A DNA stretch of 64,000 nt, from NCBI GenBank assembly GCA_021734445.1, contig JAIPIY010000001.1, forward strand, positions 31,849 to 95,848, written 5' to 3'. The number at the start of each line of letters is the position of its first letter. The first letter of the stretch is position 1. Origin of the DNA: Minisyncoccota bacterium. Its GTDB lineage: Bacteria > Patescibacteriota > Minisyncoccia > Phycocordibacterales > UBA1006. This document shows positions 18,961 through 21,726 of this stretch, in pieces. A program made the position numbers and the translations under genes. The notes under the pieces were generated by a model. It was not told where the DNA came from, ran no database searches, and saw nothing but the letters and a program-made list of their open reading frames with translations.

Positions 18961-21726
18961 CTAATTATTTTGCAATTTTCGCATAAATTCTGCTTCGACT
19001 TCTTCTCTTGGTCGACCAAATTTTAGATATGATAACTGTTTGATTTTCTCTGCTAATTCTTTGTCCCCTGGAGGAATAATGGACCAATGACATTCCATGT
19101 TAAATGGTTTTGTCGGTACACCCTTTAATAACATACTGACGTAGGAATTGAAATTATCTAATTTCATAATGTCTGTTGCTGTAAATGTTGGTGCGAATTT
19201 TTTAGAAAGAAATTCAGCATCTTCCGGACTAACACGATACACTGCCATAGATCCAACGTTGCCAAAAACAGCATCTCTAATTTTTTCTTCTAATTGAGAA
19301 ACATATTGGTGTGCAACATTTAATGACAATCGATATTTTCGTGCTTCGGACAAGATAGATGCAATAGAATCTGTGGTAACGTTTTGAAACTCGTCGATAT
19401 ACAAATAAAAATCATTCATCTTTTGTCCATACATATCCACACGCGACAAAGCCGCCATCTGAATTTTTCCTACTAAAATCATACCAATTAAATTTGCATT
19501 TATTTCACCCAATCTTCCTTTTGCCAGATTGACCAACAAAATTTTCTTTTCGTCCATAATCTTTCGGAAATTAAATGCAGATTTTTCTTGAGTAACAATA
19601 GGACGCATAATTTCATTTGAAAGAAATCCATCGAATTTACTGGTGATATAAGGGACAAAGTTTTCTAATCCTTGTTCCCCTGTTGTGGCTTCGGCATTTT
19701 TCCAGAATTGTGTAATCAATGGGTTTTTACAGTGAGATAATTTCATATCTCGAAATGCTTTGTCCGACAATACACGCCCAATTTCCAACAATGTGCTTCC
19801 TGATTCTGGATGTTCCATCACCAAACCAGTACTGTTTCGGAAATATTGTTCAAACATCGCACCTCCACCAGCTTTCATATCAAACAATTTATTAAAAATT
19901 CCCATGAGTTCGTTGATCACAAAAGTTTTTTGTTCTGGATAGTTTGGATCAAATTCCAACATGTTCAATCCCATGGGTCGCGCCATGTGTGCAGGATCAA
20001 AATAAATGACATCATCAACACGTTCTTTTGGAACATAACTGAGAATCTCTTGTACATCGGTACCGTGTGGGTCAATAAAACAACATCCTTCCCCATTACG
20101 AATATCTTGAGCAATCATATTTTTCATAATAGTTGTCTTACCGGTACCGGTTTGCCCAATAACATACATGTGTCGAACACGGTCTTCGCGGTCCATACGA
20201 ATTTCTAAATTTCTACCACGATATGCATTCAATCCCAAAAGAACTCCCTGTGCATCGGCAAATTCAGCAGATGCAGGAGAACCGCCCGCCTTTGATTGTT
20301 TTAATTGTGGAGAACCATCAGATTCAATAGGAAAATGATAGATAGTTGCTAACTCTTGGAGATTCAACGTAAACAGCTGTTTTTGATTATAGGTACGAAA
20401 TGTAAAAGAACGAATCAGTGCATCTAGATCAGATCCTTTTGGTTGTTCAAATTCAATACCATTTCCTTTTGTGTCGGTAAATTGATTAAATGCAGAAACT
20501 AATTCGTGTAAAATATCTTGAGCTCGCTCTCTTGTTTCTGCAGATGCGACAATACGTATATTTGTTTCAACAATAGTACTGCCTAATTTTTTCCCTAGAC
20601 TCTCGATAGCTCCTTCGTTTTTTGTTTTTACCCTGTCTTCTTGTTTTTTTGCATCATCTTTACTTTTTCCATTATCTTGCACTGAAGTAAATAATTCTTT
20701 ACCTGCCTTGTAAAAACCAAATGCTAAAGAACGTACAGATTTTACTGCATGAGAAAGACTTTCTCCTTTTTTCAGATTATCAAGAATAAGCCCATATTCA
20801 CGAACCAATGTATTACCCGCAGGAACAACAACAATTTGAAATGATGCACCTTCACCTTCGCGTTTCATTTTTGAAAATGCATTCAATAATACAGAAATGG
20901 GGTCATGTTCAAATACATCATGGGTTTTTAATGACAGAACATCGGATGTCATTGGTTTCGCATAGGCACCAACAACAGCACCTGATTCATGAAATATATT
21001 ATAGTCATCGAAAACTTCTTCTATTTTTGCATCTCGATATAACCCAAATACTTGTTTTTGAAAAAGATCAATTTTTATATTCGGTATCGCAACATAAAAA
21101 ATTACATCTTCTCCTGTTTGAGACAGAGCAACTTCTAATGTATAATAATTTTTTTCTTTGTTATTTTTTTCAGAACCAATAGATAGCATACCCGCATAAA
21201 ATTGCTCCATCAATGTAACGAACTCACGGTATGGTTTTGGTTCACCATTTTCTGGCGCAGGGAGGGTTACCTCGAACAATGTCATATTAATTGCCTTCCA
21301 CAATTCTTGACCTGGGCGCACGTCAGATACTGGATGTCCTGATTTTATATATTGAACCAAAAAACGGTGGAAATCATCTTCAAGATGAGGATCACGCATT
21401 TTTTCAATAACGGTCAATGTGTTTCGGACACCTTTTTCCAACATAACACCGTATAGTTCACCAATTTGTTCGTCGTGTTTTTCTGGAGATAACCGCAATG
21501 CAACTGCCTCTGCTTCGTGTTCTTGGATATGAATTTCTTCTGCCAATGTGTGTTCAGGTGCCAGTTCTGAATATTCTTGGACTAATTCATGTGCAATATT
21601 TTCCAATGGTTTTTCTGGAGTTTCAATATTTGACTTTTGTTCACGACGTGACAACTCCTGACGCAAAAAAGCTATTTCTTCGTCAGGCGTTACAAATTTT
21701 TTCGGTATTTCAATATTTCCCTCCAT
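18961..21726 (-). CDS. Orphan FtsK/HerA-superfamily P-loop ATPase with a VirD4/TraG/TrwB-like C-terminal domain and an N-terminal ~450-aa domain of unknown function
   Basis: Walker A YVIGQTGTGKTT, then FIDPHG; Walker B YLYIDEFQNV; ARKYRLSLNVAHQYVSQL (Arg-finger/sensor region of coupling proteins and HerA). No N-terminal TM helices and no adjacent T4SS or relaxase genes. Confidence 0.55.
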   Translation of the reverse strand: MEGNIEIPKKFVTPDEEIAFLRQELSRREQKSNIETPEKPLENIAHELVQEYSELAPEHTLAEEIHIQEHEAEAVALRLSPEKHDEQIGELYGVMLEKGVRNTLTVIEKMRDPHLEDDFHRFLVQYIKSGHPVSDVRPGQELWKAINMTLFEVTLPAPENGEPKPYREFVTLMEQFYAGMLSIGSEKNNKEKNYYTLEVALSQTGEDVIFYVAIPNIKIDLFQKQVFGLYRDAKIEEVFDDYNIFHESGAVVGAYAKPMTSDVLSLKTHDVFEHDPISVLLNAFSKMKREGEGASFQIVVVPAGNTLVREYGLILDNLKKGESLSHAVKSVRSLAFGFYKAGKELFTSVQDNGKSKDDAKKQEDRVKTKNEGAIESLGKKLGSTIVETNIRIVASAETRERAQDILHELVSAFNQFTDTKGNGIEFEQPKGSDLDALIRSFTFRTYNQKQLFTLNLQELATIYHFPIESDGSPQLKQSKAGGSPASAEFADAQGVLLGLNAYRGRNLEIRMDREDRVRHMYVIGQTGTGKTTIMKNMIAQDIRNGEGCCFIDPHGTDVQEILSYVPKERVDDVIYFDPAHMARPMGLNMLEFDPNYPEQKTFVINELMGIFNKLFDMKAGGGAMFEQYFRNSTGLVMEHPESGSTLLEIGRVLSDKAFRDMKLSHCKNPLITQFWKNAEATTGEQGLENFVPYITSKFDGFLSNEIMRPIVTQEKSAFNFRKIMDEKKILLVNLAKGRLGEINANLIGMILVGKIQMAALSRVDMYGQKMNDFYLYIDEFQNVTTDSIASILSEARKYRLSLNVAHQYVSQLEEKIRDAVFGNVGSMAVYRVSPEDAEFLSKKFAPTFTATDIMKLDNFNSYVSMLLKGVPTKPFNMECHWSIIPPGDKELAEKIKQLSYLKFGRPREEVEAEFMRKLQNN

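Follow-up and report, generated by a model that had tools for sequence, protein, structure and literature searches.

In a 64,000-nucleotide stretch of contig JAIPIY010000001.1 from a Minisyncoccota bacterium (the window, meaning this whole stretch), the minus-strand gene at 18961..21726 encodes a 921-aa protein that joins a DUF8128 domain to an ATPase resembling type IV coupling proteins (T4CPs). We read this protein as a soluble, anchor-less coupling protein of the VirD4/TrwB branch of the FtsK-HerA P-loop translocases, which would derive from monoderm elements and be coupled to a type IV secretion system (T4SS); as a whole, this reading stands at about an even chance. The protein has three parts: an acidic helical extension of about 140 residues, a DUF8128 domain with the predicted fold of the VirB4 N-terminal domain (NTD), and a TrwB-like ATPase into which an all-helical domain is predicted to be inserted. 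The existence of the family and its separation from virB4 are already known, and the gene is an ordinary member of this catalogued family without known function. What is added here is the recognition, from structure, that DUF8128 resembles the VirB4 NTD, together with the family's ancestral pairing with Replic_Relax genes and the fixed position in the ribosomal superoperon.

18961..21726, minus strand: complete open reading frame (ORF), 921 aa, ATG start; DUF8128 plus T4CP-like ATPase (a Patescibacteria 'T4CP homologue')
21295..21726, minus strand: residues 1-144, acidic helical N-terminal extension (alignment, charge, model)
20317..21294, minus strand: residues ~145-470, DUF8128 (PF26449) alpha/beta domain, predicted fold of the VirB4 NTD
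18964..20244, minus strand: residues 495-921, TrwB/VirD4-type RecA-like nucleotide-binding domain (Pfam, NCBIfam, Foldseek, hhalign)
20134..20157, minus strand: Walker A GQTGTGKT, residues 524-531, invariant or nearly so in the family (alignment, motif scan)
19591..19932, minus strand: residues 599-712, predicted all-helical insertion between Walker A and B, at the position of the TrwB all-alpha domain (model secondary structure, analogy with TrwB)
19390..19407, minus strand: Walker B YLYIDE, residues 774-779, D778 and E779 invariant (alignment, motif scan)
19306..19344, minus strand: ARKYRLSLNVAHQ, residues 795-807, with invariant R796 (candidate arginine finger) and H806/Q807 (alignment, Pfam)

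Domain architecture of the DUF8128 ATPase

An earlier sequence-only reading assigned the C-terminal half to VirD4/TrwB-type coupling-protein ATPases, and this assignment is borne out by Pfam, by structural matches and by the T4CP class (t4cp1) given to an ortholog in rows of a published table (see below). In the HMM search proposed by that reading, TrwB_AAD_bind (27.7 bits, residues 513-558), TraG-D_C (26.0 bits, residues 773-844) and DUF87 (25.2 bits) all score above their cut-offs, as partial matches. The best NCBIfam models are of the TraD/VirD4 type, far under their cut-offs (SXT_TraD, 51.7 vs 366 bits; conj_TOL_TraD, 39 vs 648; CD1115, 38.8 vs 250). Foldseek matches the C-domain to TrwB (E 9e-5, TM-score 0.46 on the target), Cagbeta, DotL and HerA (4d2i), and sequence searches of the PDB with the protein and with its profile give P-loop-level matches only (RecA, TrwB, DotL, HerA).

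The motifs quoted earlier are present and can be placed by residue: Walker A, DPHG (residues 552-555), Walker B and ARKY (residues 795-798) with its HQ, the TraG-D_C-matching region beginning around residues 795-807. Walker A and B, R796 and H806/Q807 are invariant across the 46 homologs of the family alignment, and therefore the protein is, judging from these residues, very probably an active enzyme. In the AlphaFold model (mean pLDDT, the model's per-residue confidence, 71 over the whole 921-aa protein), eight helices are predicted across residues 599-712, between the Walker motifs; their likeness to the TrwB all-alpha domain is one of position only. With TrwB, VirD4, TraD and TraG the protein shares a RecA-like nucleotide-binding domain with Walker A and B and the TraG-D_C region, and its predicted helical insertion stands at the all-alpha position. 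Unlike them it has no N-terminal transmembrane (TM) domain, carries a VirB4-NTD-like domain of ~330 aa in its place, and has no linked relaxase. In a Kyte-Doolittle scan with a 19-residue window, no TM segment or hydrophobic N-terminus is found, and the top mean (1.45) lies in the ATPase core, in agreement with the earlier statement that an N-terminal anchor is missing.

The domain in place of the anchor points to VirB4. Foldseek gives colinear full-length matches to TrwK (E 4e-9), ranked above those to TrwB, and the protein has the VirB4-type layout, in which an NTD fold is followed by a RecA-like C-domain without TM helices. The model thus predicts a VirB4 NTD fold for DUF8128, not the HAS-barrel with which the sequence-only reading had suggested comparing it. 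That reading had also described an acidic N-terminal domain of unknown function; the acidity stands (net charge -14 over residues 1-100), whereas the domain is not novel, its predicted fold being that of the VirB4 NTD. When a 105-sequence profile of the family is aligned by hhalign with a 12-sequence profile of plasmid VirB4 proteins, the C-domain matches VirB4 C-domains at 97.5% probability, and the full-length alignment runs colinearly ~120 columns into the end of the N-domain, an extension that is not significant alone. A literature search for DUF8128 found no papers.

The first 144 residues, which have no Pfam match, are kept in the Paceibacteria-type subfamily and are missing from the ~800-aa forms of the family. 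In three distant lineages of the candidate phyla radiation (CPR), ORFs of 131-138 aa lie just upstream of, or overlap, a DUF8128 gene of ~800 aa or longer (L083, 7602-7997; L087, 7572-7979; L089, 3-419). Neither a Pfam match nor a TM segment is found in these ORFs, and BLASTP shows no similarity among them or to target residues 1-160. An origin of the extension by gene fission or fusion was abandoned, since the ORFs show neither similarity to the extension nor a Pfam match.

Relatives in Patescibacteria, plasmids and phages

The family is large. A word-indexed search gives 2,551 proteins at E<=1e-5 among the matches listed; the 120 best cover the full length (909-945 aa), with identities of 92% for one and 58-63% for the others, and all come from Patescibacteria (Nomurabacteria, Paceibacterota) with precomputed PF26449 and PF10412. 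An exhaustive HMMER scan of 1.84 billion cluster representatives (50%-identity clusters) finds 20,500 proteins at E<=1e-3 and 5,153 at E<=1e-30, and a scan of one genome per species finds at least 575 relatives. Members of the UniRef clusters are named 'DUF8128 domain-containing protein'. The conserved core spans residues ~145-917, and many members of ~800 aa are without the first ~140 residues; PHROG 5156 (phrog_5156), whose function is unknown, matches residues 173-917 (E 1e-77). The earlier description as an orphan thus fits in that no partner genes lie nearby, but not in that the protein has thousands of full-length homologs.

Distant homologs at 20-26% identity align from target residues ~145/204 to ~877/917, so both domains are covered. 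They are found in 646 plasmid records (Bacillus, 335; Streptomyces, 99; also Staphylococcus, Clostridium, haloarchaea and Sulfolobus) and in 45 phage records, mostly of SPO1-like Bacillus phages. In the B. subtilis plasmid NZ_CP032854.1, the 886-aa homolog (WP_121549396.1; BLASTP E 2e-30 over target residues 204-898) is followed directly by Replic_Relax and then, with genes in between, by TcpC, by TcpE with a separate VirB4 next to it (AAA_10, 389 bits), and by a polytopic membrane protein. In Streptomyces sp. BHT-5-2 p1, the best non-CPR match (814 aa, E 3e-51) stands in the order polytopic membrane protein, PrgI (VirB3-like), VirB4, homolog, Replic_Relax (142 bits), SLT plus NlpC/P60 hydrolase. 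In phage SP8, a 906-aa homolog is followed by Replic_Relax (50 bits). The homologs of the Bacillus plasmid, a C. botulinum plasmid and two phages have no TM helix, and in the Streptomyces homolog one marginally hydrophobic window is seen, close to a start that may be mis-set.

These ATPases belong to phage and plasmid DNA translocation operons that have been described before: orf201 of phage 0305phi8-36 and gp27.4 of SPO1 are VirD4-like coupling ATPases with an N-domain devoid of TM helices, adjoin a relaxase, are related to TraG of Sulfolobus pING, and are dispensable in the laboratory (Pathria et al., 2012; PMC3357382). Together with WP_121549396.1 and the BHT-5-2 p1 protein, they are homologous to the window protein over both domains, at 22-26% identity. 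In the phage and plasmid operons a Replic_Relax/MobC-like relaxase-family gene directly follows the ATPase gene, whereas ndk follows the window gene, which has no such partner; likewise, the Bacillus-plasmid and Streptomyces-element homologs lie beside VirB3/VirB4/TcpC/TcpE and a cell-wall hydrolase and the window gene does not. The window protein also has the extra 140-aa N-extension. The family is, in sum, a class of anchor-less coupling proteins of monoderm and archaeal mobile elements and phages, as a rule found with a Replic_Relax-type gene beside it. The Bacillus and Streptomyces modules also encode a true VirB4, and the Patescibacteria copy has lost its Replic_Relax partner.

In SPO1-like phages the homolog lies among replication genes, and in the temperate phage D6E (L082, 7788-10046) it lies between a partition protein and the integrase, in the lysogeny region. 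In the C. botulinum plasmid, a 133-aa TrbC/VirB2-pilin-like ORF (L092, 8447-8848; 27.7 bits vs a cut-off of 27.9) precedes the homolog, which is unusual for a monoderm and recalls the VirB2-like pilins reported for the T4SS of Patescibacteria.

For Patescibacteria, the T4SS and T4CP record has been surveyed across 3,035 genomes (Quinonero-Coronel et al., 2025; PMC12102498; cited throughout from passages and Table S3 rows of that study). VirB4 is found in 2,417 of these genomes, as a clade nested in the monoderm class MPF-FATA (a mating-pair-formation type), and 5,713 VirD4-type T4CP homologues are found in 2,918, of which 148 lie near virB4; relaxases number 109. The T4SS of Patescibacteria is concluded to derive from, and to have been domesticated out of, monoderm conjugation systems, and the authors state that, since the T4CP homologue of S. 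epibionticum is dispensable for epibiotic growth, exaptation 'cannot be ruled out'. One locus syntenic with the window (L057) holds the ortholog KKU80937.1, which Table S3 lists as a T4CP (CONJScan profile t4cp1, 89% coverage, VirB4 proximity 'No'); the window gene therefore belongs to the already catalogued group of T4CP homologues far from virB4. Going by these rows and passages, that group and the PF26449 proteins are the same family, present in almost all genomes, and the gene itself is no different. The passages of the study that were searched do not mention the VirB4-like N-domain, the missing TM anchor, the Replic_Relax pairing outside CPR or the fixed place after map.

Rows of Table S3 give VirB4 matches of Patescibacteria a coverage of just ~55-59% of the virb4 profile, with 'TrsD' adjacent; among the TrsD proteins listed, one has a match to PF11130 (TraC_F_IV, an N-terminal family of VirB4). 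From this short coverage and this match, VirB4 of the lineage may be divided between an NTD-like TrsD and a C-terminal ATPase.

Gene order at the superoperon tail

The gene lies between ndk and map on the same strand, as first described.

21751..22575, minus strand: map (methionine aminopeptidase), 24 bp upstream of the gene
18372..18875, minus strand: ndk (nucleoside diphosphate kinase), 85 bp downstream of the gene
23854..23889, minus strand: terminator-like hairpin 5' of adk, putative 5' boundary of the unit adk - AA_kinase - map - DUF8128 gene - ndk (consensus scan only)
18117..18135, minus strand: terminator-like hairpin 3' of ndk, putative 3' boundary of the same unit (consensus scan only)

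The same consensus scan finds no terminator-like hairpin between these two, from adk to ndk. Conservation of the arrangement was examined in the best 80 loci of the one-genome-per-species scan, at identities down to 50%. Neighbours are found in the same order and orientation, with ndk downstream in 64 of the 80 and, upstream, map in 60; a beta-CASP RNase (55), adk (52) and secY (46) are likewise kept. The gap between the gene and ndk has a median of 128 bp across related loci. This constancy of order and orientation argues for old vertical inheritance without recent insertion: in Paceibacteria-type Patescibacteria the gene belongs to the core genome, has long been passed on vertically and has a fixed place at the tail of the ribosomal superoperon. 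That it interrupts the superoperon, as had been noted, is right as a description, but the arrangement is the conserved state of the lineage. More distant CPR members occupy variable housekeeping contexts, for example beside pheST or msrA, with no common partner, and in one distant lineage the gene lies ~1 kb from comFC-like and pilM/pilO/pilB/pilT/pilC genes.

No relaxase or VirB gene had been seen nearby, and among the window's large ORFs, whose products are RecG, FtsH, a Mur ligase, ribonucleotide reductase, glycosyltransferases and surface proteins, there is no VirB4, VirB6 or relaxase. A tblastn search of the window and 90 CPR loci with VirB4, TcpC, TcpE, PrgI and Replic_Relax of Bacillus and Streptomyces gives no match, a weak test given the divergence. 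At the place downstream of the gene where a relaxase would stand, CPR loci share no conserved ORF. In seven related loci (L011, L023, L026, L027, L029, L034 and L036), a ~189-aa CYTH-domain ORF (48 bits) stands between the DUF8128 gene and ndk.

The gene is set amid nucleotide-salvage kinases (window 18372-23821 and 26517-27089), namely adk, a UMP-kinase-like gene of the AA_kinase family and ndk, with cmk on the opposite strand; the UMP-kinase-like gene (22530-23228) overlaps the map ORF by 46 nt as listed. For an organism that lacks de novo nucleotide synthesis this neighbourhood is suggestive, but it may be coincidence, because adk-map is a standard superoperon pairing. Within the superoperon, between secY/cmk and adk, the window also encodes an 827-aa secreted protein (23909-26392, minus strand) with C-terminal PG_binding_1 and a GLUG motif, which is not detected in the 80 related loci.

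Possible functions

Patescibacteria cannot synthesise nucleotides, amino acids or lipids, and theirs is, to our knowledge, the first T4SS found to be necessary for a bacterium to grow on its host. This near-universal coupling-type ATPase is the obvious candidate for selecting the substrates of such a system, yet neither T4SS genes nor any relaxase gene is linked to it. In the reading as an anchor-less coupling protein, the ATPase would have descended from the coupling protein of a monoderm conjugation machinery of the MPF-FATA type, as found on Gram-positive plasmids, and would assemble into an ATP-driven ring like TrwB and VirB4. As the formerly 'unknown' domain is a VirB4-type module by predicted fold, a role in docking can be proposed: in place of a membrane helix, it would dock on a VirB3/VirB6/VirB8/TrsD-VirB4 platform whose genes lie elsewhere in the genome. 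The macromolecule that the ATPase might then hand to or from the T4SS channel would most likely be nucleic acid, though it may be protein. The ancestral Replic_Relax partner raises the question of a cryptic relaxase-like partner.

Several observations weigh against this proposal. No T4SS gene is found in the window, in the 10 kb on either side of the homolog at the 80 Paceibacteria-type loci or in the few distant CPR contexts sampled, and the phage homologs show that the family is able to work without a full T4SS. The likeness of the N-domain to the VirB4 NTD is structural only, hhalign giving 0.7% probability for the two profiles and 0.6% and 7% for a narrow family profile against single VirB4 sequences. 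The C-domain is modelled at moderate confidence (pLDDT about 50-85). In the essential T4SS of S. epibionticum, no coupling or relaxase protein is recognizable according to Wang et al. (2023; PMC10633639), and the passages of the survey state that its T4CP homologue is not essential for epibiotic growth whereas the T4SS genes are (PMC12102498). This result in a distant Saccharibacterium is the one experimental hint on DNA uptake, a role that the sequence-only reading had suggested and that is speculative.

The next possibility is a housekeeping DNA translocase independent of the T4SS, that is, a domesticated ring ATPase acting on the cell's own or incoming DNA in segregation, repair or the processing of imported DNA. 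We consider this the main, though clearly less probable, alternative. It would suit the housekeeping operon with adk, map and ndk, the lack of a T4SS neighbour in the syntenic loci, the phage homologs that function without a T4SS, the dispensable S. epibionticum homologue and the one distant member near comFC-like and type IV pilus genes, although that closeness is seen in a single lineage. T4CP homologues are also found in more of the surveyed genomes (2,918) than VirB4 (2,417), but this excess does not discriminate, because genes that are universal, with two T4CP copies and ~80% completeness, predict 96% (1-0.2^2 = 0.96) vs 80%, and 96.1% and 79.6% are observed (PMC12102498). Against this alternative, the simplest reading of the VirB4-like N-domain is as a module for docking on a T4SS. 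Substitution for FtsK was considered and is unlikely, at least in Saccharibacteria, because TM7x has its own ftsK (TM7x_00370).

A bolder version of the T4SS-coupled reading holds that the DUF8128 ATPase is the cytoplasmic motor that imports host DNA or RNA through the domesticated T4SS, that it is co-transcribed with the salvage kinases (adk, the UMP-kinase-like gene and ndk, with cmk nearby), and that its N-domain marks a surviving intermediate between VirB4 and anchored coupling proteins. If so, nucleic acid would be pulled into a cell unable to make nucleotides, and the salvage kinases would process the products. We regard this version as rather improbable.

The stand-alone HerA-type defence or repair ATPase that the sequence-only reading had offered as a candidate role is very unlikely. 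The protein falls in the same P-loop superfamily as HerA and FtsK and is probably a ring translocase like them, and some matches lean this way: PADLOC gives partial matches to mad8 (48 bits over residues 518-843) and to HerA models at the P-loop, DUF87 matches at 25 bits, HerA 4d2i is among the structural matches, and the D6E homolog lies in a lysogeny/moron region. However, the likeness is at the level of the P-loop, T4CP models outscore HerA models, and the protein lacks a HAS-barrel, a NurA or Sir2 partner, the FtsK gamma domain and a membrane domain. No nuclease, Sir2 or methylase adjoins the gene, its composition equals that of its surroundings, and its identical housekeeping-operon position across hundreds of species is unlike the variable settings of defence islands. 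Taken together, the housekeeping context, the absence of a partner and the P-loop-only matches leave the HerA-type reading unsupported, and a defence system was rejected on the partial PADLOC matches and the conserved context.

Equally unlikely is the idea that the gene is the lineage's true VirB4, the ATPase that assembles and energizes the T4SS, diverged in sequence. The two-domain layout without TM helices, the predicted VirB4 NTD fold and the colinear TrwK matches ranked above TrwB would all agree with it. At the sequence level, however, the protein differs from VirB4, TrwK, TraC and TcpF: their N-domains show no detectable likeness to its own, the VirB4 Pfam models AAA_10, CagE_TrbE_VirB and TraC_F_IV do not match it, and NCBIfam VirB4 models score below the TraD/VirD4 ones (TIGR00929, 16.6 vs a 643-bit cut-off). 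Above all, the family coexists with VirB4, which disfavours this reading: it is not, as a VirB4 would be, the sole VirB4-type ATPase next to VirB3; a bona fide AAA_10 VirB4 accompanies it in the modules from Bacillus and Streptomyces, and rows of Table S3 place VirB4, TrsD and VirB3 of the KKU80937.1 genome in a separate cluster at gene numbers 699-701, with a second T4CP match at 782 (PMC12102498).

Least probable of all is a remnant of a recent mobile-element insertion into the superoperon: family members outside CPR do occur on plasmids, elements resembling integrative and conjugative elements, and phages, but strong synteny, the opposite of what the sequence-only reading would expect of a remnant (position and orientation kept in 60-64 of the 80 species-level loci), a GC content (0.36-0.37) equal to that of the flanks, intact and invariant catalytic motifs and the absence of a flanking integrase or repeats in the window refute a 'recent' insertion and place the acquisition before the divergence of the sampled lineages.

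Four further features of the window were observed. A stand-alone 137-aa protein (8771-9184, plus strand) matches the archaea-specific editing domain of threonyl-tRNA synthetase (tRNA-Thr_ED, 75 bits), and a 131-aa SET-domain protein (11311-11706, plus strand; 90 bits) would be a lysine methyltransferase encoded by a reduced bacterial genome. A 1,049-aa protein (40312-43461, minus strand) carries a Peptidase_S74 intramolecular chaperone domain (65 bits) of the type known from phage tail fibres and endosialidases, and may be a surface fibre or adhesin. Finally, GC content is low at ~53000-59800 (0.29-0.33 vs about 0.36-0.39), where RgpF-like and WsaF-like glycosyltransferases and an ABC transporter ATPase of the Wzt type are encoded; this stretch probably forms a glycan island for the cell surface.

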